Shown here: positions 3,254 to 29,828 of the stretch, one piece after another | How positions within the stretch are numbered: position 1 is the first letter of the stretch | Layout: each line of letters starts with the position of its first letter | Assembly (NCBI GenBank): GCA_902769585.1 | Contig: CACXPT010000004.1 | Coordinates: 1,689 to 65,688 of the forward strand | Direction of reading: 5' to 3' | DNA length: 64,000 nt | Source: an uncultured bacterium | GTDB taxonomy: Bacteria > Verrucomicrobiota > Kiritimatiellia > RFP12 > UBA1067 | Notes under the pieces: model-generated | Seen by the model: only the letters and a program-made list of their open reading frames with translations | Database searches by the model: none | What the model was told of the DNA's origin: nothing | Translations under genes and position numbers: made by a program

Positions 3254-3343
3254 AAAACGCATGCGCCCCGTCTCCGCCAGTGCTGACCGGATCGGTGCGC
3301 AAGCATTCTGGAAATTTGATATACTTTGCCGTGGAGACAAGGC

Positions 3344-5663: not shown

Positions 5664-7802
5664 ATGGCTTTAAAAGTCTGGATAGGTGAGAATCTTGATC
5701 GAAGACACGAACAGGAGCAGATGAAGGAATTCCTGTCGTTGATGCATGCCTATTACGATAATCAACCGGCAACTGTTCATGTGTTGTGCAATTTTATATG
5801 TGGGGGGAGTCAGATTGATGCCGCTGTTGTAAAGACCGATGCTTTTATTCCAATAGAGTTCAAGACGGCAGGGGGGCCAGTCTATGGTTCTGAGAACGGG
5901 AAGTGGAAGTTTGAAGATCCCGATACGTGTCGTGAAATCCAACTTGGCGGCGGGTCGCATGCGTCCAATCCATACAACCAGGTTGCTAATGCGCGAACTG
6001 CGGTAGCGCAAAAATTGGAGGTAAACGAGAATGTGTTTTTCCGTCGTCATGAATGTGATCGTGTTGCGGATTGGCGGCATTTCGTTCATGGGCTTGTAGT
6101 CCTCGCGCCAAATCTTGATCAGGGACTTGAGGACGAGATTGATGTCGACTTCTACGCGAAACCTTGGTTCGACTGCTGTCGAATGAAGGATGTTGCTGAG
6201 GTGGTGTCAAAGACGACAACTCGTGACGGGGATTTGTCGAACAAAAATATTCTCAAGATTATAAGTCAAGTTCTGCATCTTGAGAGTGCAGAGATGCGTG
6301 ACGGGGTGCCCGTGCTTCAAGGAACCATGGATTTCGAGGGCGAGTCTGAATCTGATGCGCCGTTGACTAAGTCTGCTGACAATTTTGGACAGACATTGGG
6401 AGATCTGTTTCCAGGACAGCCTCAATCGGATGCGAAGGAACCGGCTTCGCCGAAACCCTTGCCGAAGAAGCAGGTTATCAAGGCTCCCACTCCTGTAGAA
6501 ACAAAATCGTTGCTGTCAGTAAAGCCGGGAGCGAAGCCGTTACAGCCACCACCGCCGCCGCCAGGAACCACTCCTGCGGCCGTGACGAGGAAACTGCCGA
6601 TTGACGATCCGCAAGTGACGACGTCCTTGGAGAATATCAAAGGGTTCGTGTGCGAGGATTTGCCAGAATATGTTGAAAACAATGTCGTTGCATGTGCCAA
6701 GCCGAATGCTGCCGATCTTCCTGTTCCGATCGAGGGTGATTGGGATTATGTGATTGAATTGAAGTTCAAGGGCGATGCAAAGCGTGCTTTAGCGGAGGTG
6801 AACAAGTATTGGGCTTGTCCATATACGCATCCGTATATTGCTGATGATGTCATTGTGTGGAGATTCCCCGAGGCGAGTAGTGTTGAGAGCAAGGAGAATG
6901 ATGAAATACGAAGTGTGGCACTACAGGGAATCGGCTTTCTGCCGCCGATTATAGAAGATTTTATATCCGAACATCCCAATGCTCGGTATAGCCCAGATGC
7001 TTTGACGGCATCGTCTAATCTGACGGCTGACGCACAGCGAGCCGAATGGTACCTCGGGACTTATTTCCCGCGGAGCTTCTGTGAGACGTTTGCGATTTTC
7101 GATTACATTTTTGCTAAAAAGTATGATGAATTGAAGATCAGCGATAGACTTTCCATCTTGGATGTCGGAATCGGATCGGGTGGAGCGACATATGGCTTGA
7201 TTTGGGCCCTGCGGAAGTGGTTTAAGAATCAGATAAAAGAGGTCAACGTTATTGGTTATGATGGCAATGATCACGCGCTAGAATTGTGCGGAGATATTGC
7301 GTGCGTATTGGCATCGAGCTGGGAGGCGCCTTTGAACGTCAGCATATCTAATGTACAGATCACCTGGGACGCTATGAACGTTATTGGAAATCAGAAGTTT
7401 GATTTCGTCCTCGCATCAAAAGCCATTCAAGAGATGACCGGAAGGTTTGTGTACGATGATTATGTGTCGCTCTCGAAATCCGTTTTAAAGCCTACCGGTG
7501 TAGCCATGTTGTTGGAGATTTTCAGTGAGGTTCGGCAGTCTCAGATCAGGGCATCGTTGAAAGCGCTTAATACCGATTTTCGACTTTTGCTATCGTCACT
7601 AGAGGCCCCGGCTGGTGCTACTTTTGGCGTGATTTCAAATCTTACGACACAGATTATGGAGGAGGCGATTTCGTTTGCCGCATGGGGGGGCAGCGAACTT
7701 TCCGCCGAAGAAAAGTCTGAAATCGAAGTGGTGTGTCGCAAACCGCGGAAGAAAGCTGGTAAGCGTAAATCAAACATCCCGTCAATCATTCCGTCAGTAT
7801 AA
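5664..7802 (+). CDS. NERD (nuclease-related) domain + Pro-rich linker + Rsm22-like class I SAM-methyltransferase-fold protein (gene 1 of the 5-gene operon)
   Basis: 712 aa. NERD-like core ..HVLCNFICGGSQIDAAVVKTDAFIPIEFK.. (about 5814-5864). Linker KPLQPPPPPPGTTPAA. C-terminal WYLGTYFPRSF...LSILDVGIGSGGATYGL (motif I at 7158-7184), VIGYDGND, FDFVLASKAIQEM. No NPPY/DPPY or PC motif is visible. Confidence 0.65.
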   Translation: MALKVWIGENLDRRHEQEQMKEFLSLMHAYYDNQPATVHVLCNFICGGSQIDAAVVKTDAFIPIEFKTAGGPVYGSENGKWKFEDPDTCREIQLGGGSHASNPYNQVANARTAVAQKLEVNENVFFRRHECDRVADWRHFVHGLVVLAPNLDQGLEDEIDVDFYAKPWFDCCRMKDVAEVVSKTTTRDGDLSNKNILKIISQVLHLESAEMRDGVPVLQGTMDFEGESESDAPLTKSADNFGQTLGDLFPGQPQSDAKEPASPKPLPKKQVIKAPTPVETKSLLSVKPGAKPLQPPPPPPGTTPAAVTRKLPIDDPQVTTSLENIKGFVCEDLPEYVENNVVACAKPNAADLPVPIEGDWDYVIELKFKGDAKRALAEVNKYWACPYTHPYIADDVIVWRFPEASSVESKENDEIRSVALQGIGFLPPIIEDFISEHPNARYSPDALTASSNLTADAQRAEWYLGTYFPRSFCETFAIFDYIFAKKYDELKISDRLSILDVGIGSGGATYGLIWALRKWFKNQIKEVNVIGYDGNDHALELCGDIACVLASSWEAPLNVSISNVQITWDAMNVIGNQKFDFVLASKAIQEMTGRFVYDDYVSLSKSVLKPTGVAMLLEIFSEVRQSQIRASLKALNTDFRLLLSSLEAPAGATFGVISNLTTQIMEEAISFAAWGGSELSAEEKSEIEVVCRKPRKKAGKRKSNIPSIIPSV

Positions 7803-7820
7803 CAAACAAGGAGACAATCA

Positions 7821-9092
7821 ATGAAGCCTATCTATGTTCCCGAATCGAAACTTGATAAAAATCAGCAAACTGTGTACGATCTGAAACTTGATGCCAGCTT
7901 CATCGTCCAAGGCTGTGCCGGTAGTGGGAAAACCTCGCTGGCCATGTTGAGGATGCAGCAGAAGCTTGCGGAGGATAGAGCATCCGATGTGACAAAGTTC
8001 TATTACATCGCGTTCGTCCGCGAGTTGGTAGAGTGCATTCGTCGAGACATTCGCAACTGTCCTCAGCTTCGGGATGTTGCGCAGAAAGATGATTTCTTGA
8101 TTACCTACAGCAATTGGGAAGACGGAGTAATTTCAGATTGGATGAGAAAGAAATTCAATATTAATCCCCGAGATGGCATGCGCCGGGCCCGCGAGCGTGA
8201 ATGGAGGGGGCGTATTTACCAGAATGTGGATATCGCTATTAATAAACAACCTGATTATCTCTTTGTCGATGAGTGTCAGGATTTGGAGATGAATGATATT
8301 CAGGACCTCGTGAATAGTGTTAGGGTCGGTATTGCATTTTATGGCGATGACGCGCAGCACATTATGAACTGGACGGATCGTACCCCGGTACTGCTTGAAG
8401 ACATTAAGAGAGCGTATCCAGATAAGTTTCCCGTGATTCATCAATTACTGAGAAACTATCGACTGCCCAAGGAGATTGCGGCATTTGCCCAGGAGATCGG
8501 GGGTAAGAGTAATCTGGCGGCGCACTGCAGGAGTCCATACCATGAAAAGCCGGTGCTGAAGTGCATGCCGTCTCCGGATGCGGCTGTAGAATATATGGTG
8601 GAGCGCATACGCAATCTTGATTTACAAGATGTGGCTGTTGTCGTGCCGACCAATGAGGATTCAAAGGCGGTTTACGAAGTCATGTCTCGACTGCTTGGTA
8701 GCAGTGCCGTTTCTGCATCGTGGGACATTGACCATGAGGCTGGGGCGGTTGAAGGCGAGGATTATTCTTACCTTCGCGACACGCGTGTAAAGGTGATGAC
8801 CTATGAGAAGGTCAAGGGACAGCAGTTTGAAACGGTATTCCTTTCAGTGTATGATGAGATGGGTGCGGAGCAAATCAAACGCTTTTATGTTGGTATTACT
8901 CGTGCCGAACGCTTCTTGTATGTACTATACACTGATCCGATGCCTGCCTGTTTGCGGCAGGTTCCGCGTGACTTGTATAACACGACAGACGAAGTTTTGA
9001 ATTTTGAAGGACTTTACCGTCCAGGATCAAATAACGCTGAAGAAAACGCGACGGAGGCAGCCGCCATGGTAGAAGAAGGAGAAGATTGGTAA
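7821..9092 (+). CDS. Compact UvrD/Rep-like SF1 ATPase/helicase (gene 2)
   Basis: 423 aa. Walker A GCAGSGKTS (7911-7937); motif II LFVDECQDL (DECQD at 8268-8282); YGDDAQ; C-terminal VMTYEKVKGQQFETVFL and FYVGITRAERFLYVLY (UvrD_C-like motifs V/VI). AAGGAG Shine-Dalgarno lies upstream. Confidence 0.75.
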   Translation: MKPIYVPESKLDKNQQTVYDLKLDASFIVQGCAGSGKTSLAMLRMQQKLAEDRASDVTKFYYIAFVRELVECIRRDIRNCPQLRDVAQKDDFLITYSNWEDGVISDWMRKKFNINPRDGMRRAREREWRGRIYQNVDIAINKQPDYLFVDECQDLEMNDIQDLVNSVRVGIAFYGDDAQHIMNWTDRTPVLLEDIKRAYPDKFPVIHQLLRNYRLPKEIAAFAQEIGGKSNLAAHCRSPYHEKPVLKCMPSPDAAVEYMVERIRNLDLQDVAVVVPTNEDSKAVYEVMSRLLGSSAVSASWDIDHEAGAVEGEDYSYLRDTRVKVMTYEKVKGQQFETVFLSVYDEMGAEQIKRFYVGITRAERFLYVLYTDPMPACLRQVPRDLYNTTDEVLNFEGLYRPGSNNAEENATEAAAMVEEGEDW

Positions 9093-10792
9093 TGAAGGTC
9101 TATTTCCCGACAAGCACATTGAACTTTTCGAGTATCATCTCGGCACAGAGGATACTGCCTGTTCAATATTACGTCGAGGGGGCGCTTTGGTGGAATCGGT
9201 ATGTGAAGACTGTAGCCGAGAAGGATGCGGTAACGATTTTGTATAATCGCTTTCCGGTTTGGGAAATCAACGATCCTGACAGAGATAACTATCCACTTGT
9301 CATTGTTTTTGATGGGTGTCCAGTGGCTAAGAAATCTCGGGTTGATCTGAACTGTGAGGCTGGTGGCAAAAAACTGACGGCATTCTTCACTAATGTCCCG
9401 GTCGCGGTCTCGGCAAAGGATATCTTGGCAGGTAAGATTGAGTTTGTCTTCAGAAACGAAGATGAGAAACGACGTATTCTGTTGAAGGCCGAAAGCGGAG
9501 TGGATGAGTGCAAGGTCCTGGGCTTGTTGATGACCGCGAGGCCAGAAGCCTTTATAGCCGGGATGGCCAGAAACATTAAAAATGAGGTGAGACTTCCTGT
9601 TGAAGAGGCGTTACATCCGCAGTTCGAAGAAGCGGAGCGTAAAGTTCTTGAGAACAAGTTCAATTGGGAGGATTTGGTCCACGAGGAGCGACTTAGAGGT
9701 GCGGAGTTAGGTTTTGAATTGGGGTGTTATATTAGATCGCTACGCGGCGGCGTGTTCAGTGGCGCATTTCGTGAACGAATGGAATTCGGCGATTGGCGCA
9801 ATGACGTCCTGCCTCCGTCCTTCAATTCAATCCTCGAGGGATTCATAAAACGTCCTGCGATGGCATGGGATCCCAATCGTAGTGTGGTACTAGCATTGGT
9901 AGATAAGATTATGGCCGATTTTGCAAAAGACAAGTCGGTTGACAAGTCGGTGAAGAATACGTTTCTTGTTCTTCACAATCACTGGGGCAGCGCCGAACAA
10001 CGGTTTAAGATATCCGAGATCGAAGACGTATATTTGCAGGCATTCGCTGCGTTCCTCGAATGTGGAGCGATGCCAGGGAAGTATCCGCGCTATTTGAAGA
10101 GTATGAAGCTGAAGAGTCCGGAATTCATGCTGGCGCTTTATGGAGCTGTTGTCGGTTATACATCTTTCTCACGCTCCCTTATGATCAATGAGAATTATCT
10201 GCCGCAGCCACCTGCGGTAGAACCGAGTTTCGGGATGACTAAGGTGGTTGGCGGTGCGCCTGCTCCCACGCCAGTGGAGACAGGAGAATCTAACGCGACA
10301 GGTATGTCGTCTTCGCAAGTAAAAACGCCTCCTAGATCAGATATTCTCTTCGTGCAGAAGATCGCCGAAGAACGTAAAGCGGAGGCAAAAAAAGAGAAAA
10401 AACCTGAACAGGGAGATTTGTTCGCTGAAATGACTCTTGGTGCGGGTACGCAGAAGGTGACTGCGGCGGCTACACCGCCCATTGTTGGTCCAATCGAGGA
10501 TGGAGGATGGATCAATGCATGCGCTTCGGTCATTGATGATTTAAAAGCTAGAAAAACATTTATAAATGATATGACGTGGTTTGTGGGGAACCACAAAGCT
10601 ACCTTTGTCGATAAAGATGGCATAACTAAAAAGGGTCGTTATTACGACACGGAGTATAGAGTAACACTCGAGAGTGTTGAACGTCACATGTTCAATAGCT
10701 TGAATAGTGGCCCTGACTCGGTGCGAATCGACTATCAGAAGGTCCCGATCAAGAAAGTAATGGCAATCTTAAGGCAACACTATGGCCAGTGA
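9092..10792 (+). CDS. Hypothetical protein with no recognisable domain (gene 3)
   Basis: 566 aa. The start ATG overlaps the stop of gene 2 (TAATG). There is a central Pro/Lys-rich low-complexity linker (PQPPAVEPS..APAPTPVE..KKEKKPEQ). I recognise no catalytic motifs. Confidence 0.6.
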   Translation: MKVYFPTSTLNFSSIISAQRILPVQYYVEGALWWNRYVKTVAEKDAVTILYNRFPVWEINDPDRDNYPLVIVFDGCPVAKKSRVDLNCEAGGKKLTAFFTNVPVAVSAKDILAGKIEFVFRNEDEKRRILLKAESGVDECKVLGLLMTARPEAFIAGMARNIKNEVRLPVEEALHPQFEEAERKVLENKFNWEDLVHEERLRGAELGFELGCYIRSLRGGVFSGAFRERMEFGDWRNDVLPPSFNSILEGFIKRPAMAWDPNRSVVLALVDKIMADFAKDKSVDKSVKNTFLVLHNHWGSAEQRFKISEIEDVYLQAFAAFLECGAMPGKYPRYLKSMKLKSPEFMLALYGAVVGYTSFSRSLMINENYLPQPPAVEPSFGMTKVVGGAPAPTPVETGESNATGMSSSQVKTPPRSDILFVQKIAEERKAEAKKEKKPEQGDLFAEMTLGAGTQKVTAAATPPIVGPIEDGGWINACASVIDDLKARKTFINDMTWFVGNHKATFVDKDGITKKGRYYDTEYRVTLESVERHMFNSLNSGPDSVRIDYQKVPIKKVMAILRQHYGQ

Positions 10793-11834
10793 GAAGATAA
10801 CGATTCGCACTGATACGGGGGAAGTGGTCGAGGCGATGGCGCCGGTTATCATCTCCGCTAGTCGTTCGACGGACATCCCGGCGTTCTATGCGAAGTGGTT
10901 CTTCAACCGGCTTGAGAAGGGGTATTGTGTCTGGTATAATCCCTTCAATCAGAAGCCGGGTTATGTTTCCTTCTCCAAGTGCAAAGTGGTTGTGTTCTGG
11001 ACGAAGAATCCAGAGCCAATCATCCAGTATCTGCCGGAACTCGATAAACGCGGCATTCATTATTATTTCCAGGTTACCTTGAATGATTATGTACGCGAGG
11101 GGTTTGAGCCGAACGTTCCGTCGGTCGAAGAACGTGTCGAGACGTTCAAGAAACTTGTTAAGATAATTGGCAAGGAGCGTGTGATCTGGCGCTTCGACCC
11201 GTTGATTGTGACTAAGGAGATTACGCCAAGAGAGTTGTTGAAACGAATTTGGGATGTCGGCAATCTTCTCAAAGGGTGTACAGAGAAGCTGGTGTTCAGT
11301 TTTGTGGATGTCCGCGCGTATCGGAAGGTACAGAATAATCTCGTTAAGGAGACCAGGTCCTTCGATAAAGACACTGTTGAATCAGCGGAGATGTCCGAGA
11401 TACAACGACAGAAAATGATCGAGGGGCTTGTAAAGATCCGTGAGGCCTGGGCAAAGGATGGATGGGATGTCACTATGGCCACATGTGGTGAGGATTTCGA
11501 TTATGATGCGTATGGTATCGAGCACAACCGTTGCATTGACGGCGAGTTGATGGAGCGGGTATTCGGAGAAGACAAGGCGCTTGTTTACTATCTACGTACC
11601 GGAAAACTTGCGGAGCCGGATCTTTTCGGGGAGTTGCCGCCCATTCCTGCCGCGTGTAAGAATCTTAAGGACAAAGGCCAGCGCAAGGCCTGTGGATGCA
11701 TGATTAGCAAGGATATCGGCATGTACAACACGTGTCGCCATCTCTGCGTATACTGCTATGCGAATACGAGCAAGGAATGCGTGTTGAAGAATGCGGAGAA
11801 ACACAACGATCAAAGCGAAAGCATCATTGGATAA
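10782..11834 (+). CDS. DUF1848 family protein with a C-terminal Cys cluster (gene 4)
   Basis: 350 aa. ISASRSTDIPAFYAKWFFNRLEKGYCVWYNPFN...VVFWTKNP...IWRFDPLI matches my memory of DUF1848. The C-terminus reads KACGCMISKDIGMYNTCRHLCVYCYAN, with CX3CX2C at 11733-11756. It overlaps gene 3 by 11 nt. Confidence 0.75.
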   Translation: MASEKITIRTDTGEVVEAMAPVIISASRSTDIPAFYAKWFFNRLEKGYCVWYNPFNQKPGYVSFSKCKVVVFWTKNPEPIIQYLPELDKRGIHYYFQVTLNDYVREGFEPNVPSVEERVETFKKLVKIIGKERVIWRFDPLIVTKEITPRELLKRIWDVGNLLKGCTEKLVFSFVDVRAYRKVQNNLVKETRSFDKDTVESAEMSEIQRQKMIEGLVKIREAWAKDGWDVTMATCGEDFDYDAYGIEHNRCIDGELMERVFGEDKALVYYLRTGKLAEPDLFGELPPIPAACKNLKDKGQRKACGCMISKDIGMYNTCRHLCVYCYANTSKECVLKNAEKHNDQSESIIG

Positions 11835-11836
11835 AA

Positions 11837-14800
11837 ATGACAGAGCTACAAAAGAGATACTTTGAAGAACTCGCAAGGCGGCGCAAGGTGATTGCTGACG
11901 CGCTTGATGATCCTGCGGCGGGTGGATTGCGGGAAGGAACGTCTGATAAGTATTCTGATGAAGCTCATTTCGTTTACGAGTTATTGCAGAATGCTGATGA
12001 TGTAGGTGCAACACGGGCCGAATTTGAGCTTAAACCAGGTGAGCTGATTTTTCGTCACAATGGGATTGTGCATTTCACGATTACTGATCCGGCGAATGAA
12101 CGAGAAGATTTTAAAAATCACACGGCCGGACACGTGAACTCTATTACGGCATATGGAGGACGCAATAAGCAGTCGCAGAATGATGAAGGAAATGTAATCG
12201 GAAAATTTGGACTGGGATTCAAATCAGTTTTCCTTTACACGAATTCGCCGTCAATTTATGATCGCGATGTTCGATTTAGTTTGGAACGCGAAATCATTCC
12301 ACACCCGTTGGAGAATGATTTTCCTGGACGCTTGCCAGAAGAAACAGTGTTTCGTTTTCCGTTTGACAAGTCTGGGCTTGAGTCGCCGGCAGCAGATGTT
12401 AGTCGTAAGTTTGCGTCTTTGATATTCCCAAATCTCTTCTTGAATCATCTAAAGGTTATTAGATTGAAGAATGGTTCGGATTTCTGTGAGTATGTTAAGA
12501 CAGTCCTTGATGAGCATGATTTCTCTGATGAAGATTCTTTTTCAACGAAGGCTCAACTTATAGAATTCCAGAAGATAACTGTCATCAGTAGGGAAACGAC
12601 GAGACTTTGGTTGTTTTCGCGTCGAGGATCAACAAATCATAGGTATTCAATTGGCTATGTTCTTGATGATAGTGGAGTGCCAAGACCGGTAAACTTTAAG
12701 GCCTTTTGTTTCTTTCCGACGAAACATGCTACGGGTTTGAAGTTTCTAATGCATGCACCGTTTCTGTTGAATGATAGCCGAGAGAATATTAAGGCCAAAG
12801 AAGGGCATAACGTTACATTAATAAATAAGTTGGCTGATTTGGCGGGTGACAGTCTTGAATATCTGCGAGATATTGGAGAGAAAGATGGAAGAAATCTCAT
12901 AACAGATGCTATTCTTGATGTGATTCCGTTGTCTGCTGAAAATGAAGTGGAGGACGAGATCTCTTTTAATGCGTTTTATCAGCGCATCCTTGAAAAATTC
13001 TTTGACAAACGTTTAATACCGACAGCGGCAGGTTGCATTGATCGTCTCCGCGCCTATTGGCCGATCTCAAAACAAGTTCTGACGATTTTCCCCGACGATA
13101 TCCTCCAGGAGCTATACCACCATGGTTGTGAAGATGGCGAGGCGCTTGCTGATATTCATTGGGCTTTCGTTTCTCGATGGTCGTCTCCGTCAATGGATAA
13201 GAGACAGAGTGCATTTATTGACCATTGTATTCGCGCTCGTCCGACAGAAATTGAACTTTTGGATAATGTCACGGCGGGGTTTATAAAGAATCGTTCTAAA
13301 GAGTGGCTGTCGGCATTTTACGCGTGGATTGACGAAAGTGAAGAACGGCGTAAGAAAGCGAGGCGGTTACCAATATTCTTGAATCAACATTGTAAAGCAG
13401 TAGCGGCATTCGATCAACGAGATCAGCACATCCTCTTCCTTCCGGCTCATGGGGCTGATAATTATGAGACGATAAATGAGGAACTGCTTAGGGATGAGCA
13501 TACTAAGGAACTGGTAGAGCGGTACAAGATATCAGAACCATCCCGCGAGGATCGGATTCGCTATATTATTTCCAGAAGGCTTTCGAACTGCGACGGTGAT
13601 GAGGCAGGGGGCTTGTTCAAGGAAGTTGTGGCGTATTATGCTTCTCTCCCGCAAGATGATAAAACACGTCTTGTAAATGAGATGACAGGGAATGTGCACC
13701 TTAAGAGTGTTGACCTTAAGACTGGGGAGAAAAACTACAGGCCTCCGCACGGACAGTATTTGCCGTCTGAGTTTATCCGAGAGTATTTTGGTATGAAGTA
13801 TAATGCGCTCATGGTTGATATGGAGTACTACCATGGGTTAATTGAACAGCGAATGTGGAAGGATCTTGATGATTTGCTTCTTCGACTTGGAGTCGGCACA
13901 ATGCCAGTCATTATGTCCCAAGAGATGGCGTACACGGAATGGTCTCCTTTCAAACAGCGGTGTAGTAAGCTTGACCTTAGTTTTTCAGATCCGGCCGATC
14001 GGTATTATTACGACCAGAAGTTTACGAAGCAATATATTCATGGCGCATCCACATTTCTCAAGCGGATACTTGAGGAGGAGAATCTGGACGCGAAAAGGAA
14101 ACTATCTTTAATGTTGTGGAAGGTTCTTCGGTATCACGCCGATAACTTCAAGGAAGTGTCGTCATGCAAGTTTAATGGCATAGATCTTTCGTCGATATAT
14201 TCTGGTTCATGTAACTTGTTCGGACATCGCGTGTATTCTTTTGTTAGTAAGGACAAGAACAGAGGGAATTTTTTAAGTGGGCTTCATGCTTATTCTTATC
14301 GCGGAATGAATTACGAAGGTTTTGATAGTCCTCAGTTGCTAGACTTGCGGTCGGCAAGATGGATTGCGGTGGATGAGGGAACATATTATTCGCCAGATGG
14401 GCTCCCCATAAATCGCTTGCCAGATGAGTATGAGCATGGCGACGAGAATGATCCGCTTATTCGGATGCTCGGGATCGGTCCCAAGGAAGTGCCGATAGAG
14501 GTGAGGGGGGAGATTGAGGCCAGAACAAAAGCGCAAGCGGAGGCAGAAGCTCGTGATCGGCTTTCCGAGGATCAGAAGCGGACAATGGATATTGGCGAAA
14601 AAGCGAGACGCCTTGGGCTTGATGAGGCCGATCTTGAGGAAATGGCCCGGCGAAAACGCGAAAAGAAGATGACCGAAGATAAGACCGCTTATGGTACGGG
14701 ACATCCTCGCCCTAAATCAGATTCGCTGATGAGCAGAATTGAAAGAGATGTCCAAGAATATAAGGAAGGCTTAGAAAAGCATACCTCGCCTCCCCCGTTG

Positions 14801-17116
14801 CCGAATCCGGAAGAGGAGTTTGAGGATGACGATGAACTTACTCCGAAGGCTGTAAATTTCGCAGATCGGATAAAGAAGCGTGAGCAGAGGCAGGCTGCTG
14901 AGATCGCTGAGCTGGAACGCGGTGATGAATTGCAGCAGAAAGCACAATCTCAGGAGCGGTATACCTTTGGCTGGTTTAAGGGATTGCTTGAGTTGGAGAT
15001 GCTCGGGAAGGAGAAGGATGCTGAAAATCAACGAGAGCTATCAATTTGTTTCACGAAGATGGAACATGAGTCTGGTACGGAGCGAACATTCATTCTGAAG
15101 CGTCCCAATCGTAACATTCCTGCATGGGTCGAGGATCTTTCGGGTATTCCTCTGCACATGATTATCGATAACAAGTCCGTTCAGGCGATTATCGAGGTGA
15201 TGAGTGTGCAGTCGTTCAACCTTCGGGTGAAGCTGAAGGCAAGTGCAGTGCTTGATCATTTGAACTTATCCGGACTGATGGAGGCGAAGATTCAAGCACA
15301 GTGTCCGACATTTCTTCTTAATGAGTTGAAGCGTGGGTTTGAGGGTCTTCCTTTTGAAGACTCCAAGAATCTTAAATTGGATCTAACAAAGGATATTGAG
15401 TTCATCTTTGGCCCTCCCGGGACCGGTAAGACAACCTTTCTTGCAGCCAATCGAATTATCCCGATAATGCAACGGGATAAGGACTGTCGAGTACTAGTAC
15501 TCGCTCCGACTAACAAAGCCGCAGATGTATTGGCGGCACGAATCATTTCGGAGGTCGGTGACGATTCGTATCGTGATTGGTTGATCCGGTTCGGGAATAC
15601 GGCAGATGAACAGTTAGAACGTGCAGGGGTTTGCCCCGGTAAGGATGTGGATCTAAAGAAGTATCCACGGCACACTGTTATTGCCACGATTGCTCGTTTC
15701 CCGTATGATAAGTGCATTACAGGGAATTCTGAGCCTATGCCGTTAGTCGATCAGGAGTGGGAGTACATCGTAATTGACGAGGCGTCGATGATTCCGTTGG
15801 TGAATATCATCTATCCTCTTTATAAAAAAATCGGGACTCAATTTATCATTGCCGGAGATCCGCTTCAGATAGAGCCCATTATTTCGAATGATTTATGGAA
15901 GGATGAAAACATTTATACGATGGTTGGCCTAAAAGACTTTGAGCTTCCGAAAACCGAGCCACATAATTACAAGGTTACTCGATTGGCAACACAGTATCGT
16001 AGTGTCCCCTCTGTAGGAAAGATTTTCAGTACGTATAGTTACAAGGGTGTCCTGCGCCATCATCGATATGAAGCTGACATTCGCCCACTTGAGGTTGAGG
16101 GGTTGCCAGAGATAAGGCCTCTTACGAAGGTCATGTTCCCGGTGAGTCCCTATGAAAGCATCTATCGCCTTAAACGCCTTGGGTTAAAGGGCGGGTCATC
16201 ATATCAGATATATTCGGCGTTGTTTGCCTTTGAGTTAGTGTGCGCAGTTGCGAAGAGAATGAGACAGCAGCAGAAGAAGTTCCGAATAGGTGTGATTTCT
16301 CCTTATCGTGCGCAAGCCGACTTGGTGCAGAAGCTCGTTGAGTCTGAAAAGCTTCCGGAGTACATAGACATCTCAGCTGGGACTGTGCATGGATTCCAGG
16401 GGGATGAGTGTGAGATGATTGTAGCTTTGTTCAATCCTCCACCTGGGATATCAGACCGTGCAGGATCGTTCATTAATAAGAAGAATATTATAAATGTTGC
16501 GGTAAGTAGAGCGAAAGATTATCTGGTAATGTTGATGCCGGATGATAAGACGCAGAATTTAGGAAATATGCATGAGGTACGTCGGATTGAGGCGATTATG
16601 CGGTGCGATCCCGAACACTTCATTCAGCATACAAGCGCAGAGTTTGAAAAAGCTATCTTTGGTGATGATAGGTTTATTGAGAAGAATGCTTTTTCGACCG
16701 GTCATCAAATGGTGAATGTCTATGGTATTCCAGACGCAATATATGAGGTGCGATCTGAGGATACAGCCGTTGATGTTCAGATTCACAAAGCGACGGTCGT
16801 TAAAAGAGTTCCATTGCAAGCTCTTGATGAAGGGGTGGTAACATCTCAAGATCATATAGGTGCGACAGAATTTGCTACGTTTGCGATGCGGCAAAATCCT
16901 GAAGCTCTGAATCTGGCAAGGAAGTACCAGTCTGCAATGCAAAAGATTGCGACCGCCCAGGCAACGAAAGATCGCTTGACTATGATCATGGCAGAGTTTG
17001 AGTTGAAGAAGTATGTGCCGTTGCTAAATGATCTATATCGTGCCTATTGTGCGACGTTCAAAGTGAATGTTTCATTTGAAACTGCAATGTCGGATCTTTT
17101 GCAAAAGAGAAGCTGA
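11837..17116 (+). CDS. 1759-aa fusion: sacsin/paraMORC-type GHKL (Bergerat) ATPase N-terminus + long middle region with a charged coiled-coil + Upf1/DNA2-like SF1 helicase C-terminus (gene 5)
   Basis: The start at 11837 (MTELQKRYF) lies 2 nt after the gene 4 stop; the track start at 11732 would overlap gene 4. HFVYELLQNADDVGA (ELLQNADD at 11978-12001), GKFGLGFKSVF. K/E-rich segment at about 14500-15000. Helicase motifs: FIFGPPGTGKTT (15411-15437), VLAPTNKAAD, IVIDEASMI (DE at 15776-15781), IIAGDPLQIEPI, LATQYRS, GTVHGFQGDECEMIV, INVAVSRAKDYL. Confidence 0.8.
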   Translation: MTELQKRYFEELARRRKVIADALDDPAAGGLREGTSDKYSDEAHFVYELLQNADDVGATRAEFELKPGELIFRHNGIVHFTITDPANEREDFKNHTAGHVNSITAYGGRNKQSQNDEGNVIGKFGLGFKSVFLYTNSPSIYDRDVRFSLEREIIPHPLENDFPGRLPEETVFRFPFDKSGLESPAADVSRKFASLIFPNLFLNHLKVIRLKNGSDFCEYVKTVLDEHDFSDEDSFSTKAQLIEFQKITVISRETTRLWLFSRRGSTNHRYSIGYVLDDSGVPRPVNFKAFCFFPTKHATGLKFLMHAPFLLNDSRENIKAKEGHNVTLINKLADLAGDSLEYLRDIGEKDGRNLITDAILDVIPLSAENEVEDEISFNAFYQRILEKFFDKRLIPTAAGCIDRLRAYWPISKQVLTIFPDDILQELYHHGCEDGEALADIHWAFVSRWSSPSMDKRQSAFIDHCIRARPTEIELLDNVTAGFIKNRSKEWLSAFYAWIDESEERRKKARRLPIFLNQHCKAVAAFDQRDQHILFLPAHGADNYETINEELLRDEHTKELVERYKISEPSREDRIRYIISRRLSNCDGDEAGGLFKEVVAYYASLPQDDKTRLVNEMTGNVHLKSVDLKTGEKNYRPPHGQYLPSEFIREYFGMKYNALMVDMEYYHGLIEQRMWKDLDDLLLRLGVGTMPVIMSQEMAYTEWSPFKQRCSKLDLSFSDPADRYYYDQKFTKQYIHGASTFLKRILEEENLDAKRKLSLMLWKVLRYHADNFKEVSSCKFNGIDLSSIYSGSCNLFGHRVYSFVSKDKNRGNFLSGLHAYSYRGMNYEGFDSPQLLDLRSARWIAVDEGTYYSPDGLPINRLPDEYEHGDENDPLIRMLGIGPKEVPIEVRGEIEARTKAQAEAEARDRLSEDQKRTMDIGEKARRLGLDEADLEEMARRKREKKMTEDKTAYGTGHPRPKSDSLMSRIERDVQEYKEGLEKHTSPPPLPNPEEEFEDDDELTPKAVNFADRIKKREQRQAAEIAELERGDELQQKAQSQERYTFGWFKGLLELEMLGKEKDAENQRELSICFTKMEHESGTERTFILKRPNRNIPAWVEDLSGIPLHMIIDNKSVQAIIEVMSVQSFNLRVKLKASAVLDHLNLSGLMEAKIQAQCPTFLLNELKRGFEGLPFEDSKNLKLDLTKDIEFIFGPPGTGKTTFLAANRIIPIMQRDKDCRVLVLAPTNKAADVLAARIISEVGDDSYRDWLIRFGNTADEQLERAGVCPGKDVDLKKYPRHTVIATIARFPYDKCITGNSEPMPLVDQEWEYIVIDEASMIPLVNIIYPLYKKIGTQFIIAGDPLQIEPIISNDLWKDENIYTMVGLKDFELPKTEPHNYKVTRLATQYRSVPSVGKIFSTYSYKGVLRHHRYEADIRPLEVEGLPEIRPLTKVMFPVSPYESIYRLKRLGLKGGSSYQIYSALFAFELVCAVAKRMRQQQKKFRIGVISPYRAQADLVQKLVESEKLPEYIDISAGTVHGFQGDECEMIVALFNPPPGISDRAGSFINKKNIINVAVSRAKDYLVMLMPDDKTQNLGNMHEVRRIEAIMRCDPEHFIQHTSAEFEKAIFGDDRFIEKNAFSTGHQMVNVYGIPDAIYEVRSEDTAVDVQIHKATVVKRVPLQALDEGVVTSQDHIGATEFATFAMRQNPEALNLARKYQSAMQKIATAQATKDRLTMIMAEFELKKYVPLLNDLYRAYCATFKVNVSFETAMSDLLQKRS

Positions 17117-17419
17117 TTTTCTGTGAGATACGGTAGATGAATAATATTACCATTGAAGTCAATGTTGAACAAAAGAGTCTCTGTAGAGTTTTCTGTGGCG
17201 AATGAGGGCATATGAGGGACACGTGCCCCTACCGATGACGGGGGCTGAGAACGGATGTATATCTTGGGATAGCGACCATTCCGTATCGTTGGTGGTGGCG
17301 AGATTGGTAACGGGAAGGCTGGAACTGTAAGAAATCGCGGGTTGGCATGTTCTGTGCTTATGGCAGCACGTAAGATTGCGCTGCGAGAGACGAGTAAGGG
17401 ACAAAGACAGGAAAGGAAA

Positions 17420-17791
17420 ATGCTGATGTACGAGTTTATCGGAAAGGTAAAGGCAGTCGGCGAGCTGCAGACGTTCGCGAGCGGGTTCTCGAAGCGGGAG
17501 CTGGTCGTCGAGGAAGAGCGCGACGGCAGGTGGTCGAATGTGGTGGCGTTCTCGTTCAAGAAGGACAACGCCGCCCTGCTGGACGGGATGTTGCCGGGTG
17601 TGCGCGTGAAGGTGGGATTCGCGGTGGACGGACGCGAGTGGACAGATCCCAAGACAGGGAAGGTGCGGTACTTCTCGGATTTGACGGCGCTGAGGCTGGA
17701 GCGGCTTGACGGGGTGGTGGAGGTGCCGGAGCCGGCTGTCCCTGACAACGTGACATCCGGGCGCGATGATGACCCCGAAATCCCATTCTGA
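17420..17791 (+). CDS. DUF3127 domain protein (OB-fold-like)
   Basis: MLMYEFIGKVKAVGELQTFASGFSKRELVVEEE...VAFSFKKDNAALLDGMLPGVRVKVGFAVDGREW...KVRYFSDLTALRLE follows the DUF3127 pattern. AGGAAA lies just upstream of the ATG at 17420. The track start at 17342 is probably too far upstream. Confidence 0.7.
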   Translation: MLMYEFIGKVKAVGELQTFASGFSKRELVVEEERDGRWSNVVAFSFKKDNAALLDGMLPGVRVKVGFAVDGREWTDPKTGKVRYFSDLTALRLERLDGVVEVPEPAVPDNVTSGRDDDPEIPF

Positions 17792-17970
17792 GGTCATGCA
17801 GACTGACAAAGACATTTTCTGGGGACACCGTAGCGGCCTGCCGAGGGCAGGAATCCAGCGGAAACAAAGGCTGAATGCCGCAAGGCAGGATGCTCCCGCG
17901 ATAATGTGGTTCGGATTCGCGGTCCTGAAACACGGGCCATTCATCCGCAGCGGTCAATCCCCGTTTATTT

Positions 17971-18070
17971 AGGGAATAGGAAATAGGGAATAGGAAATAG
18001 GGAATAGGAAATAGGGAATAGGAAAGAGGGAATAGGAAAGAGGGAATAGGAAAGAGGGAATAGGGAATAG
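17971..18070. repeat. Purine-rich tandem repeat with a 14-bp unit: (AGGGAATAGGAAAT)x3, (AGGGAATAGGAAAG)x3, then AGGGAAT AGGGAATAGG
   Basis: Read directly from the sequence. It ends 33 bp upstream of the RT ORF start. The top strand contains no C. Confidence 0.95.
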
Positions 18071-18102
18071 GTTCGAGGGGATGTGAATAGTTGGAGGAGT
18101 GA

Positions 18103-19725
18103 ATGTGTGAGGTGAGGAAAGATGAGACAGTAGGAGATCTTGCGGGGTATATCTCGCTGGATGAGGTGGCGATGGCGCTCGCCAAGATGCGGATGCGCCG
18201 GACGGTCAGGAACGCCGGCGAGGAGTTCGTGCGGCGGTACATGTCCGTAGGCGGTGCGTCCGAGAACAAGAGCCCCGCCTGCGCTTTTCTGCCGCCGAGG
18301 CGGCAGTGGGTGCGCCAGGGACCGTGCGCGCGCCGGAGGAAAAGTTCGGCGCAGTTGCAGGTGGGCGCGATCATGCGTTGCGTCCGTGCCTGCGAAAGGA
18401 ATGGCTCGCTCGAGAAGACGGAGTGGGGACGGCGTCTCATCGGCCTTGTGGAGAATCTGCAGGGGCAGGTGGCGCGGCAGGAGTTTACCGTCGTGCCGCC
18501 GCGCAGCGCCAAGGTTCCGAAGCTCTCCGTGGACGGGACGCGTGGCGAGCGCGAGATTTCCGTCTTCGACGACCCCGCGACGGCGGTCCTGATCTCGCGC
18601 ACGGGCGCGTACCTCCGCGACTGGTTCGAGCCTGTCTTGAAACGCGGCAGGTGCTGTTACTCGTTCAGGAAGAATCCGAAGATCAGTCATCAGTCCGCGG
18701 TCAGGGATCTCTGCGCGTGGCGGAAGGCGCATGTGGACGCGTCCGCGTTCGTCGCCGAATGTGACATCCGGAAGTTTTTCGACAACATCCGACACGACGT
18801 GGTTGAAGAATCGATCCGACACTACATCGCCGAACTCGGCGCACCCGATTCGTCCGCCATGGGCGTTGTGTGCGCGTACTTGGCGTGTTACTGCAAGGAC
18901 GAGTCGGACGGCATCCGGCGTGGCATCCCGCAGGGCGGTGCGCTTTCGCCGACTCTCGCCAACATCGTCATGGCGCGGGCCGACGACACGGTGCTCGCGG
19001 CTGTGCAGCGGAATGCGTTCTACGCCCGGTACTGCGACGACATGGTGATCGCGTCCGTCGATGAGGGCGTCTGCCATTGCGCCATGGAAGCGTATCTCGG
19101 CGCGCTTGACGCGCTGGGCCTTCCTCCGCATCCCATGACGGAATTCGCCTATGGCCTTGAGTACTTCGAGGCGAAGAGCAAGGGCCCGTTCCGCTGGGAC
19201 TGGGCGAAGGCCGGCGAGCGGAACGTAGCGCCGTGGGTTTCCTTTCTCGGCAACCAGGTCAGGTGCGACGGCGAGGTGCGCGTGCGCGGGGACACCGTGG
19301 CGAAGCATGTGCTGAAGCTGAAGAAAGAGACGGGCGAGACGATCAACCGTCTCGCGAACGAGGGCGTATCTCTTCGCGCAGGAATGAATCCACGGAAGTT
19401 CTACACGGCGTTCATGCGCCGGATCGTCGCGAAGGGCGTGGGGTACATGAGGTCGGGGACGATCCCGAGCGACGGCCTCTGCTGGGCGGCGGCGTTTCCG
19501 AACATGACGAAGAACGCGGCCTGTGCGCGGCAGATGAGGATGCTGGATCGCGTGCGGTCGCGTTGCCTCGGGGCGCTGCGGCGGGTGTTGGGCCTGAAGG
19601 GGGCGGTCGTGCGTTTCGCCGGGCGTCCGTACAGCTATTTCGGCTACTTGATGAAGATGATGCGCCCGGCACGCGGCCCGAGAAGGACGCCTATGGTCGT
19701 GCGCCTGCCATATTCGGAGCTGTGA
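18103..19725 (+). CDS. Stand-alone reverse transcriptase (RVT_1-type) with a roughly 200-aa N-terminal extension
   Basis: 540 aa. RT motifs: PKLSVDGTRGEREISV (1/2), DIRKFFDNI (18763-18789), GIPQGGALSPTLAN (18922-18963), YARYCDDMVI (YCDD at 19030-19041), FLGNQV. There is a C-terminal thumb-like region. No endonuclease or other fused effector domain was recognised. The exact start is uncertain. Confidence 0.8.
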   Translation: MCEVRKDETVGDLAGYISLDEVAMALAKMRMRRTVRNAGEEFVRRYMSVGGASENKSPACAFLPPRRQWVRQGPCARRRKSSAQLQVGAIMRCVRACERNGSLEKTEWGRRLIGLVENLQGQVARQEFTVVPPRSAKVPKLSVDGTRGEREISVFDDPATAVLISRTGAYLRDWFEPVLKRGRCCYSFRKNPKISHQSAVRDLCAWRKAHVDASAFVAECDIRKFFDNIRHDVVEESIRHYIAELGAPDSSAMGVVCAYLACYCKDESDGIRRGIPQGGALSPTLANIVMARADDTVLAAVQRNAFYARYCDDMVIASVDEGVCHCAMEAYLGALDALGLPPHPMTEFAYGLEYFEAKSKGPFRWDWAKAGERNVAPWVSFLGNQVRCDGEVRVRGDTVAKHVLKLKKETGETINRLANEGVSLRAGMNPRKFYTAFMRRIVAKGVGYMRSGTIPSDGLCWAAAFPNMTKNAACARQMRMLDRVRSRCLGALRRVLGLKGAVVRFAGRPYSYFGYLMKMMRPARGPRRTPMVVRLPYSEL

Positions 19726-20140: not shown

Positions 20141-21691
20141 ATGTTGGATTCGTATGAGGATGATTTCGAAGAAGAGGATATCCCTGATGAAGAGGTGGAC
20201 TGTCCTGATAGGTCACGAAGAGAATTCCAGCAGGCGAAGCTGGACTTCGAGACGTCGGGCAGGGACAAATACGATTCCATGCTGGACGAAGTCCGGCGCT
20301 CGCCGTCCTCAAACGGCATGGTCTTGCCTATGCCAGAAGAGACTGCCTGGATGACGGAGGAGGAGCGGCGGTGCGTGGAATGGTTTGACCGTCGCGAGTA
20401 CGACACGTTCATGAAGCGCTCCGCTTGGTACGAGGGCGACGGGTGGATCGTTCCCTATTGTCGCATGGTCTGCGAGGAGTTCAAGCGGGCGTCGCCGGAG
20501 CTGCTGGAGGATTACGCAAATGACTACATCAAGTGCTTTTGGTGGCCGGAAGATCTTGGGGGCAATATCTATGTTGGTGGCGAGATGTCGCGCAAAGACC
20601 GGTTCCTCCGCGTCGCCGACAAGATTTTCGAGGCGGCAAGGGGCGGAAATGCGCGGGCGCAGAATGTCGTGGGGACGTTCTGCGAAAGCGGGCGGCCGGA
20701 GTACGTCGTGCCAGTCGTAGAGAAGCAGCTGGGTATCAAGTTGTGCGATGGCCCTGCCGCGCGCGAGTGGTACAGGAAATCTGCCGAGGGCGGATGTCTC
20801 CAAGGGCAGCGGAACTACGCGAGGGCCCTGTTGAAGGGAATCGGCGGGGGATGGCGCACCATTGAAGAGTCGGGTAGCACCACGTGGCATCGGGACAGGA
20901 TTCTTGCCGACAGGCAACTTGGCGTGGAATGGTACCGAAAGGTCGCGGATCGCGGTGACGGGAGGACGCAATACTGCTTGGCGTGCCTGTACGCGGACAA
21001 CAGGACACTTCCCCGTGACGTGGCAAAGTGTGCGGAATGGATGCGGCGAGCAGCCGCGAGCGGATGGAAGCAGGCTACCGACATCATAGAGACTGCCGGC
21101 GGCGATATGTCCGATGAACGTATCAGCGTCGAACTTCTGATTGCTTGGGCGAAAGAGGGGATTCGGAGATCGCAACAGGGTGACGTGCATGATGTCGCTT
21201 ACTGCATCGGCAACATCCCTCCGGCGGAACGGCGCGATCCGGCGAAGGAACGTGACAAGGAATGGCTTTTGAAGGACAAGCCGGAAGGAACCGTGGTGCC
21301 GCCGGCAAGCAGTCGCGAGACGGTGCGAACGCCCAATCTTACGAGCGCCAATCCGTCGTTCGCGGCACAGCTGATCATATACGTCCGTGACAGGTTCGGC
21401 GGCGACGCACCGCTTGTCTATCGTGCCGCGCAGGTCAGCCGCAAGACGTATTCGTCCATTGTGAGCAATGAGCTGCGTCCGGTCTCGAAGCGGACGGCCA
21501 TGGCCTTTGCGCTTGCGCTGAAACTCTCATGGATCGAATCGTTCAGGCTTCTGAAGGCTGCTGGATTCTCGTTTTCCGACTTCCTCTTGGAGGACATGAT
21601 TGTTCGCGCCTGCATCATTTCCGGCATTTATGACGTGCAGAGGGTCAACGAGATCCTGAAGGCCCATGGCGCCGAGCCGTTGGGTTGCTAA
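20141..21691 (+). CDS. Sel1-like repeat protein with an acidic N-terminus and a C-terminal HTH-like module
   Basis: 516 aa. Repeats of the form A.EWYRKSAEGG..GQ.NYA / GVEWYRKVADRGD..TQYCLA / CAEWMRRAAASG. The C-terminus SFAAQLIIYVRDRFGGDAPLVYRAAQVSRKTYSSIVSNELRPVSKRTAMAFALALKL resembles a common XRE-like C-terminal module. Confidence 0.65.
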   Translation: MLDSYEDDFEEEDIPDEEVDCPDRSRREFQQAKLDFETSGRDKYDSMLDEVRRSPSSNGMVLPMPEETAWMTEEERRCVEWFDRREYDTFMKRSAWYEGDGWIVPYCRMVCEEFKRASPELLEDYANDYIKCFWWPEDLGGNIYVGGEMSRKDRFLRVADKIFEAARGGNARAQNVVGTFCESGRPEYVVPVVEKQLGIKLCDGPAAREWYRKSAEGGCLQGQRNYARALLKGIGGGWRTIEESGSTTWHRDRILADRQLGVEWYRKVADRGDGRTQYCLACLYADNRTLPRDVAKCAEWMRRAAASGWKQATDIIETAGGDMSDERISVELLIAWAKEGIRRSQQGDVHDVAYCIGNIPPAERRDPAKERDKEWLLKDKPEGTVVPPASSRETVRTPNLTSANPSFAAQLIIYVRDRFGGDAPLVYRAAQVSRKTYSSIVSNELRPVSKRTAMAFALALKLSWIESFRLLKAAGFSFSDFLLEDMIVRACIISGIYDVQRVNEILKAHGAEPLGC

Positions 21692-23210: not shown

Positions 23211-23214
23211 GAAC

Positions 23215-24484: not shown

Positions 24485-24642
24485 CCAAGATGGCGGCTGC
24501 CCCAGCCAGAAAGCCGTCGGGACGTTCTGTTTTACGCGAGATAATTTTGAGGCAAATTTGAGACATCTTTGAGACAATTCGGTGCCGGGGAACTGGTATC
24601 CTGTTGTGCGTCGGCACAAAGCCGGTAGAAACGAAGGATGCA
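24485..24642 (+). repeat. 158-bp upstream cassette, copy 2
   Basis: See copy 1. It ends at the start codon of the RhuM-type gene. Confidence 0.9.

Positions 24643-25877: not shown

Positions 25878-29828
<3,951 letters not shown>

Follow-up and report, generated by a model that had tools for sequence, protein, structure and literature searches.

A sacsin-type GHKL module fused to a Upf1-like helicase: known modules in a new, widespread combination, met in a bacterial defence island

A gene for a giant protein of 1,759 amino acids (aa) lies in a defence island of an uncultured bacterium of the Kiritimatiellia (Verrucomicrobiota). The DNA analyzed here, referred to as the window, is a stretch of 64,000 nucleotides (nt) from contig CACXPT010000004.1 of assembly GCA_902769585.1 (positions 1,689 to 65,688). 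From the N to the C terminus, the giant protein consists of a sacsin-type GHKL module, a Tiamat-like middle region, a charged linker, a Upf1-like superfamily 1B (SF1B) helicase, and a C-terminal tail. These are known modules in a new, widespread combination. We tentatively read the giant as an uncharacterised defence-island protein, in which an ATP-gated clamp would act together with a translocase, either alone or with a neighbouring nuclease-helicase; the chance that this is right is, in our estimate, a little less than even.

Both modules belong to one genuine polypeptide. One genome per species was scanned (185,579 species genomes), which gave at least 542 confirmed loci, and the best 80 were kept. 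In 71 of these the fusion is collinear, with the helicase always 3' of the GHKL module on the same strand; the other nine have no helicase match or insufficient DNA. The 80 loci span Bacillota, Bacteroidota, Planctomycetota, Spirochaetota, Acidobacteriota, delta- and gamma-proteobacterial lineages, and the archaeon Methanimicrococcus. A protein database holds more than 2,100 relatives. The top 120, of 1,570-1,909 aa, are full-length fusions with SACS and AAA_11/AAA_12 domains and bear no more specific names than "AAA domain-containing protein" or "DEAD/DEAH box helicase". Because the fusion is universal and includes complete genomes (Desulfosporosinus orientis, Sulfobacillus acidophilus, Bacillus and Paenibacillus species), an assembly chimera is ruled out. 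A first-pass annotation of the window, made from its letters, had described GHKL modules and helicases as usually separate polypeptides; in the family of the giant, fusion is the rule. The N-terminal module alone is found in 421 clusters (50% identity) at E<=1e-30 and in 1,899 at E<=1e-10.

The open reading frame (ORF) extends from 11732 or 11837 to 17116. The ATG at 11837 is the supported start, because the N terminus (MTELQKRYF) aligns with a near-invariant M1 in 67 homologues and because a 1,759-aa version is recorded in NCBI/ENA (P0170). It lies 2 nt past the stop codon of the preceding gene, g4. All motifs listed in the first-pass annotation were present where it had placed them (Table 1), with the sole exception of Walker A, which shifts from 15411-15437 to 15410-15433. 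Among 68 sequences, identity to the window protein is just 33-55% in the N-terminal segment and 44-84% in the helicase segment, and the motif residues E48, N52, D55, G122/125/127, R315, K1198, D1314/E1315, Q1344, R1388, and R1558 are invariant. Judged by this alignment, the active sites of both modules are under selection.

By sequence and predicted structure, the N terminus of the giant belongs to the sacsin class of the GHKL superfamily, and the GHKL fold proposed at first reading is upheld. Pfam SACS matches at 2.6e-10 (41.0 bits against a gathering score of 32.8), and NCBIfam NF047352, a sacsin N-terminal ATP-binding-like domain, scores 63 bits against a cut-off of 50. A profile of the giant family, compared with PDB sequences, retrieved crystal structures of sacsin SR1 at E-values of 9e-9 to 5e-8. 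By sequence, the ATP-binding fold has its best relative in SR1, with homology shown over the first ~110 residues. In the residue alignment of sacsin with the giant, ELIQNAEDAGAT corresponds to ELLQNADDVGAT and GRFGIGFNSVYHITDVPSI to GKFGLGFKSVFLYTNSPSI, and the glycine-rich motif III aligns with sacsin GRFGIGFNS. Within the Bergerat fold, H74 and G76 are also invariant across the 68 sequences. The canonical DxGxG of motif II is absent; the giant has HNG there, and sacsin has YNN at the aligned place. As far as the alignment indicates, this departure from standard GHKL proteins is common to the sacsin class. The earlier label "sacsin/paraMORC class" holds in its first half, as SACS is the best profile. 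No MORC/paraMORC-type profile (HATPase_c_3-like, S5) gave a Pfam match at E<=0.01, SACS being the only GHKL profile found, and paraMORC membership was rejected in favour of a sacsin/Tiamat-like module.

An AlphaFold model of aa 1-880, built on the 68 sequences, had a mean predicted local distance difference test (pLDDT) score of 88.7. Foldseek aligned this model with full-length Hsp90/TRAP1 (N and M domains) over 490-590 columns, with GyrB 43K and ParE over 368-438 columns, and also with sacsin SR1 (E-values 5e-8 to 2e-5). Because these alignments span Hsp90/TRAP1, GyrB 43K, and ParE, a second, middle/transducer-like domain is placed after the Bergerat fold. R315, within an invariant motif of this domain, is a candidate catalytic arginine by analogy with sacsin R474 and Hsp90 R380, because a sacsin modelling study placed the catalytic arginine R474 in the corresponding downstream region. 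Sacsin and the giant both combine a non-canonical motif II with a downstream conserved Arg. In other respects they differ: sacsin, an animal protein of 4,579 aa, has UbL, DnaJ, and HEPN domains but lacks a helicase. If GHKL dimers are a guide, the helices at aa 1-37 of the giant, ahead of the ATPase fold, may serve as a strap or in dimerisation.

The altered motif II raises the question of whether the N-terminal module turns over ATP. In one variant of the defence role, the helicase would be the sole motor, and the sacsin-like module would be a pseudo-ATPase, that is, a ligand- or client-binding, chaperone-like passive sensor or scaffold. HNG in place of DxGxG would suit this variant, as would the low ATPase activity and short lid of isolated sacsin SR1. 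However, the catalytic Glu and the Mg-binding Asn are invariant, as are the glycine-rich loop and the candidate catalytic Arg, and for sacsin the same residues have been put forward as evidence of an active ATPase. In VcSduA, a GHKL-nuclease Shedu protein, defence also depends on the GHKL catalytic Glu. We consider the pseudo-ATPase variant unlikely. VcSduA and other paraMORC3-type Shedu proteins resemble the giant in layout, with an N-terminal GHKL and a clamp-like middle domain fused to a C-terminal effector in one chain. The resemblance extends to VcSduA being a stand-alone defence gene. VcSduA differs in that it joins a paraMORC GHKL to a DUF4263 PD-(D/E)XK nuclease, whereas the giant joins a sacsin GHKL to a helicase.

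Likeness to a defence protein extends well past the ATP-binding fold. Six PADLOC TmtA profiles match the giant at 1e-21 to 2e-30, the longest spanning residues 36-735 and 48-701; the best (PDLC03972, 2.1e-30) aligns residues 36-735 with profile positions 35-722 of 1302, and the other five lie between 6e-30 and 1e-21. TmtA is the protein of Tiamat, a single-gene anti-phage system, and its N-terminal GHKL and ~550-aa middle region are homologous to the giant. The GHKL fold and ~550 more residues are therefore one conserved supra-module common with Tiamat. The TmtA profiles end on the giant at ~aa 735, and the match takes in no more than about half of the TmtA profile. Where Tiamat-type relatives carry a C-terminal DUF3883 / PD-(D/E)XK, the giant has its charged linker and Upf1-like helicase. 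Membership of Tiamat was rejected, as there is no TmtA match past aa 735 and no DUF3883 or nuclease match.

The middle region is confidently modelled as mixed alpha/beta lobes and contains no known domain. Pfam at E<=1 gave nothing meaningful on sub-segments aa 142-355, 321-600, 501-880, 881-1180, and 1570-1759, and the family profile found no match for aa 150-1100 among PDB sequences except noise. Against viral structures, Foldseek matched the N-terminal model only to GHKL proteins (topoisomerase II ATPase, RIIA), none significantly outside the GHKL part. The invariant residues of aa 351-880 are almost all aromatic or hydrophobic, so there is no sign of a conserved nuclease-type active site in the middle region. 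The statement of the first-pass annotation that the giant has no recognisable nuclease is borne out by Pfam on the whole protein and on the sub-segments at E<=1. It had also proposed a structural search for hidden domains; an Hsp90-M/GyrB-transducer-like region came to light, and Pfam gave no DUF3883 or nuclease match.

The two modules are joined by a segment rich in charged residues. K/R/D/E make up 46-58% of each 50-aa window over aa 876-975, in agreement with the charged stretch noted earlier at 14500-15000. The reading of this stretch as a coiled-coil did not survive: aa 879-1022 (46% K/R/D/E) contain 18 Pro/Gly residues, the longest Pro/Gly-free run is 28 residues, the length in homologues varies from 126 to 187 aa, and this is the least conserved part of the protein. 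A long coiled-coil was rejected in view of the Pro/Gly breaks and the length variation. From its composition, the segment looks like a flexible charged linker leading to Upf1-type stalk helices. The AlphaFold models cover aa 1-880 and aa 1001-1759.

The C terminus is, by sequence and model, a complete Upf1/Sen1/IGHMBP2-like SF1B helicase, stalk and 1B barrel included, as the first reading of a Upf1/DNA2-like helicase had implied. Motifs I-VI (GPPGTGKT, DEAS, GDPLQ, QYRS, HGFQGDE, VSRAK) are all present and invariant or nearly so. Pfam AAA_12 matches at 2.5e-21 (76.6 bits) and AAA_11 at 8e-14 (52.5 bits), both against a cut-off of 27, and sequence matches include Upf1/NAM7, SETX, IGHMBP2, and DNA2. 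In the AlphaFold model of aa 1001-1759 (pLDDT 82.5), DSSP assigns helices at 1008-1064 (stalk) and strands at 1068-1154 (1B barrel). Foldseek matched this model to Upf1, Sen1/SETX, IGHMBP2, Dna2, and ZNFX1 at E-values of 3e-23 to 4e-18 over 645-725 columns; the alignment with Upf1 (3e-23, 650-680 columns) takes in the stalk and the 1B barrel. These cores share the fold of the giant helicase (TM up to 0.6 on target), although identity is 15-18% and the giant lacks their CH, nuclease, and zinc-finger accessory domains.

A helicase of the same kind is found in another defence system. The PADLOC MkoA profile matches the giant at 5.7e-35 over residues 1299-1565, and MkoC matches the RecA2 region at 3.6e-20. 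Mokosh (MkoA in type I, MkoC in type II) has a Upf1-like, COG1112-type SF1B helicase as in the giant, and its defence requires the helicase ATP site. It combines this helicase with a PLD nuclease and, in type I, a Ser/Thr kinase (STK) domain and has no GHKL module, unlike the giant. Neither the giant nor genes g0-g4 of the window have a PLDc or kinase match, and Mokosh membership was rejected.

The helicase is followed by a polar motif, E..N.FST.HQ.VNVYG.PE..YE.R.E..A.D.Q (aa 1604-1648, 16646-16780), in which E1604, N1617, H1623, Q1624, N1627, Y1629, E1637, R1639, and D1646 are invariant. Segment aa 1595-1650 has no Pfam or PDB sequence match and mixed model confidence. The helical tail behind it (aa 1651-1759) is carried by about half of the homologues.

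The surroundings of the gene in the window are a defence island. A low-GC island of ~4.2 to 17.3 kb (GC 0.44-0.52) lies within DNA of GC 0.62-0.67, and its forward strand is a run of tightly packed genes that ends with the giant ORF (Table 1). Just past the two PDC-S05 genes, rpoB is found at 25878-29828. Rfam gave no family over 3-26 kb of the window. The giant gene itself has a GC of 0.44-0.50 against 0.62-0.67 in the surrounding genome, and full-length copies exist on two plasmids (Chryseobacterium, Hymenobacter); with its low GC and plasmid copies, it was acquired horizontally. Relatives of just the N-terminal module also occur on plasmids, under the annotations "DUF3883 domain-containing protein" and "molecular chaperone of HSP90 family". 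The phage genomes searched held no homologue of the giant.

Table 1. Features of the giant gene and of its surroundings (nt positions in the window, aa positions in the giant protein)
Feature	Residues (aa)	Position (nt)	Strand	Basis or remark
Giant gene, whole	1-1759 + stop	11837-17116	+	ORF list, homologue alignment, domain matches, family-wide collinearity
N-terminal helices	1-37	11837-11947	+	AlphaFold DSSP H3-23, H26-37; pLDDT 83-94
Bergerat (GHKL) ATP-binding fold	44-200	11966-12436	+	Pfam SACS, NCBIfam NF047352, sacsin SR1 profile match, Foldseek
GHKL motif I, E48-L-L-Q-N52-A-D-D55	48-55	11978-12001	+	ExxxNxxD present
GHKL motif II, sacsin-type H74-N-G76	74-76		+	invariant H and G
GHKL motif III, G122-K-F-G-L-G-F-K-S	122-130	12200-12226	+	GxxGxG present
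GLGFKS within motif III	from 125	12209-12226	+	
Beta-rich second domain, Hsp90-middle/GyrB-transducer equivalent	201-350	12437-12886	+	Foldseek, invariant columns
Invariant motif H306-A-P-F-L-L-x-D-S-R315-E316	306-316	12752-12784	+	homologue alignment
Middle region, mixed alpha/beta lobes	351-880	12887-14476	+	pLDDT mostly above 85
Charged length-variable linker	881-1005	14477-14851	+	composition, low conservation
Upf1-type stalk helices and 1B beta-barrel	1006-1065 and 1066-1156	14852-15304	+	DSSP, Foldseek, high conservation
RecA1 domain	~1180-1360	15374-15916	+	Pfam, sequence matches, Foldseek, invariant motifs
Walker A, GPPGTGK1198T	from 1192	15410-15433	+	
Motif II, D1314-E-A-S	from 1314	15776-15787	+	DE at 15776-15781
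Motif III, GDPLQ	from 1340	15854-15868	+	
RecA2 domain	~1361-1590	15917-16606	+	Pfam, MkoA profile, Foldseek
QYRS	from 1386	15992-16003	+	
VHGFQGDE	from 1517	16385-16408	+	
VAVSRAK	from 1554	16496-16516	+	
Small conserved polar C-terminal segment	1595-1650	16619-16786	+	conservation 0.67-0.86
Optional helical tail	1651-1759	16787-17113	+	occupancy 0.42-0.47; helices 1676-1756 in model
DUF4062-HTH		3326-4132		upstream
g0, YhcG/DUF1016 / PDC-S02		4248-5423		
Cassette g1-g4, tightly packed		5664-11834	+	profile matches; recurs without the giant
g1, NERD with weak SAM-methyltransferase-like C terminus		5664-7802	+	
g2, UvrD/GajB-like helicase		7821-9092	+	
g3, orphan		9086-10792	+	no matches
g4, DUF1848		10782-11834	+	PADLOC RT-associated DUF1848 profile, 6e-40
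DUF3127		17360-17791		downstream
Reverse transcriptase (RT)		18103-19725		downstream; PADLOC RT_UG39, 5e-94
Sel1-repeat protein		20141-21691		downstream
Candidate HD-domain protein		21805-22845		downstream; by sequence reading; weak MobH-relaxase-like match only
Two paralogous PDC-S05 genes		23137-24192, 24582-25631		downstream

The first-pass annotation had proposed that the NERD protein of gene 1 (g1) is the effector of the giant. Stated in full, the giant would be an obligate subunit of a five-gene operon, in which the GHKL-helicase senses and translocates and the gene 1 NERD is the nuclease. Genes 1-5 do lie close together (overlaps or gaps of 2-18 nt), the DNA between them shows no convincing terminator, and the junction between DUF1848 and the giant is conserved in the only other loci that combine giant and cassette, namely the duplicate contig L008 and locus L007 (giant 62% and DUF1848 90% identical to the window). 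In addition, a Tiamat-like relative (GHKL + DUF3883) on the Sulfuricurvum plasmid NC_014754 (L098, 4231-7937) has a small NERD gene overlapping its start. Yet the cassette and the giant each recur without the other, and obligate NERD coupling was rejected on this ground. The orphan g3 has just 33 clusters among 5.8 billion proteins, and this rare marker helped to trace the cassette g1-g2-g3-g4 without the giant in six independent locus types (L093/94, L099, L100, L091/92, L095/96, L101/102) from animal-gut and other metagenome contigs. In these, the slot directly after DUF1848 holds unrelated genes, either an orphan of 284, 307, 173, or 527 aa or a second UvrD-like gene with a 557-aa orphan, followed in L099 and L101 by an AlbA_2/HATPase_c_4 gene. 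The converse also holds: homologues of g1-g4 are missing within 10 kb of the giant in all 80 species loci, and the nearest relative outside the window lineage (L009, 53% identity) stands by itself, next to a toxin-antitoxin pair. The nuclease at the N terminus of g1 varies as well, being NERD in the window and a weak HEPN_Swt1-like match in L091 (one variant scanned), which points to it as the cassette's own effector. The five-gene operon is accordingly an improbable unit. The giant occupies a variable cargo slot of the island, where it is probably co-transcribed with the cassette and is not an obligate partner. A looser form of the proposal survives, as about one third of the homologues directly adjoin a helicase-nuclease or restriction-modification (RM) module.

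The cassette is of interest in its own right. With its variable slot, often followed by a UG39-like RT, it has the appearance of a multigene defence locus that is linked to an RT and not yet described. Several giant-free loci continue with the same RT as the window (31-38% identity), accompanied in some by DUF3127 (L101) or a Sel1-repeat protein (L091/92). This arrangement is reminiscent of UG25 (methylase-RT + DUF1848) and UG35 (methylase-RT + UvrD), two published associations. A gene with DUF4062, HATPase_c_4, and helix-turn-helix (HTH) domains precedes the cassette in L091 (4204-5670); as a DUF4062-type gene lies upstream in the window also, a shared regulator or sensor is possible. In the window, a 14-nt tandem repeat, TAGGGAATAGGAAA (7.3 copies, 96% matches, 17970-18071), ends ~30 nt upstream of the RT ORF; in L091 and L095 the homologous RT has no such repeat ahead of it, and the repeat was rejected as a shared RT-linked element. 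In L008 (372-2460), gene 1 (window 5664-7802) is broken by a frame change that separates its N- and C-terminal domains into two ORFs. L008 is otherwise 99-100% identical, and the break is either an assembly error or a genuine pseudogene. On the Sulfuricurvum plasmid, a Qat system lies directly downstream of the Tiamat-like relative.

Neighbours of the giant in other genomes were counted with a crude ORF calling of our own on the best 80 of the at least 542 loci, and the counts are estimates. Clustering of the flanking ORFs gave one dominant family of ~1,200 aa, which lies immediately upstream and co-directional in 15 of the 80 loci and nearby in five to six more. It corresponds to the PADLOC candidate PDC-S68 (full-length matches, E = 0), a RecD-like SF1 helicase whose C-terminal stretch we interpret as a restriction-fold nuclease motif. 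Four phyla show the pairing, and in a neighbour-joining tree of the giants it recurs in several clades but not in that of the window. Its immediate, co-directional position in 15 of 80 genomes from four phyla suggests that PDC-S68 and the GHKL-helicase gene form a two-gene system. PADLOC lists PDC-S68 as a single-gene candidate; examples beside the giant (among loci L012-L070) are L021:6309-9971 and L016:6278-9862.

In five Bacteroidota loci (L071, L074, L079, L085, L088), the giant lies directly behind a type III-like methyltransferase (Mod) and a ResIII/RE_endonuc gene (Res), with an extra helicase downstream in three of the five. The Chryseobacterium plasmid (L097, NZ_MN657149, 3945-16322) likewise shows a methyltransferase, a DEAD/DEAH helicase family protein, the giant, and then a further helicase. 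GHKL proteins of the MORC/paraMORC type have been described in RM-like operons with superfamily II helicases (Iyer, Abhiman & Aravind 2008), a study in which sacsin is never mentioned. The likeness is that a GHKL with a second domain stands amid helicases, methylases, and nucleases, as the Bacteroidota clade of the giant stands within Mod-Res operons. The difference is that MORC/paraMORC proteins are polypeptides separate from their superfamily II helicases, whereas here a sacsin-type GHKL is covalently fused to a superfamily I helicase. A MORC-like operon (superfamily II helicase, methylase, restriction-fold nuclease) is not found in the window; the Bacteroidota clade has Mod and ResIII/RE_endonuc upstream. 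After removal of the identified PDC-S68 and Res proteins, a census of 110 remaining nearest neighbours gave matches to many different defence families, among them pAgo, DISARM DrmA/D, Nhi/AbiO, BrxH, HmaA, and MADS mad3/mad8. In D. orientis, genes for a PLD protein, a 1,101-aa orphan, and UvrD lie upstream of the giant. In the clade closest to the window protein (L001:6153-9927, L002), one member is preceded by an ABC-type ATPase (weak mad3/mad8) and a 915-aa orphan.

Such neighbourhoods can be shared by genes that are not immune. The giant might serve a mobile element or the cell, in plasmid or integrative and conjugative element (ICE) replication, transfer, repair, or RNA surveillance, and merely travel in the same mobile islands as defence genes. 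Plasmid copies beside ParA and conjugation-type genes would fit this explanation, as would the serine recombinases and transposases in some neighbourhoods and the housekeeping roles of eukaryotic Upf1-like and Dna2-like helicases. However, the giant is patchy across phyla and absent from most species, its immediate co-directional partners are defence-type genes, its N-terminal module is common to Tiamat, an experimentally named defence protein family, and no phage genome carries it. A non-immune role therefore appears quite unlikely to us.

For the preferred reading, a clamp coupled to a translocase, the following sequence of events can be proposed. Residues 1 to ~880 (sacsin/Hsp90-type GHKL ATPase, transducer-like domain, and TmtA-shared lobes) would form a sensor/clamp module, and residues ~1006-1650 a Upf1/Sen1-like helicase module of predicted 5'-3' polarity, held on the flexible charged linker. 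Upf1 is auto-inhibited by its CH domain. In a similar way, the N-terminal module of the giant might restrain or mis-position its helicase in the resting state. A phage- or plasmid-derived cue, either a nucleic-acid intermediate or a protein, would trigger ATP-dependent closure or dimerisation of the GHKL module, and closure would load the helicase on single-stranded RNA or DNA. Translocation could then strip or unwind replication or transcription intermediates. Alternatively, ATP may simply be burnt, or the substrate may be passed to a nuclease supplied in trans, from next door or elsewhere. The UvrD-like GajB of Gabija is reported to deplete nucleotides. The coupling of clamp and translocase, already suggested by the first-pass annotation, is reasonable given two intact nucleotide-dependent modules in one chain; the mechanism itself is what we infer from them.

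Several points weigh against this reading. The defence role is drawn from gene neighbourhood alone, and the autoinhibition, dimerisation, and substrate of the giant are pure inference. The N-terminal module might bind a ligand and not hydrolyse ATP, because motif II lacks the canonical Asp and the ATPase activity of sacsin is debated. An activity that has escaped recognition could reside in the middle region or in the conserved C-terminal motif. The spacing of 2 nt between DUF1848 and the giant, which L007 has kept, is compatible with functional coupling in this lineage. Finally, a search of the literature, which was incomplete, found no published description of a GHKL-Upf1-like fusion family, and PADLOC-DB 2.0 has no full-length model for the giant.

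A bolder proposal goes further than the preferred reading. The giant family may be a new autonomous, nuclease-free anti-phage or anti-plasmid system, in which an ATP-gated sacsin-type clamp licenses a Upf1-like translocase that directly blocks replication or expression of the invader. The sacsin repeat would then have its source in this family, as a prokaryotic conflict system. We hold this proposal to be doubtful, with perhaps one chance in three at best. If it is true, the giant and Tiamat together would mark the Hsp90-like module as an immune sensor that is swappable and able to work through a nuclease (Tiamat) or a helicase (the giant).

Should the giant prove to be a defence system, it would be a widespread addition, so far wholly unstudied, with at least 542 species loci and thousands of database members. 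Its logic would be unusual, as it has two different ATP motors and no nuclease. The sensor half of Tiamat appears to be reusable, with the GHKL and middle region joined to PD-(D/E)XK in Tiamat and to a helicase in the giant. Its repeated association with PDC-S68 and type III-like RM genes points to testable partnerships. The giant may also provide a bacterial model for the control of Upf1-like helicases by an appended domain and for the Hsp90-like repeat of sacsin, a human ataxia protein in which the biochemical function of this repeat is disputed. The giant thus bears both on sacsin biochemistry and on Upf1-like antiviral helicases.

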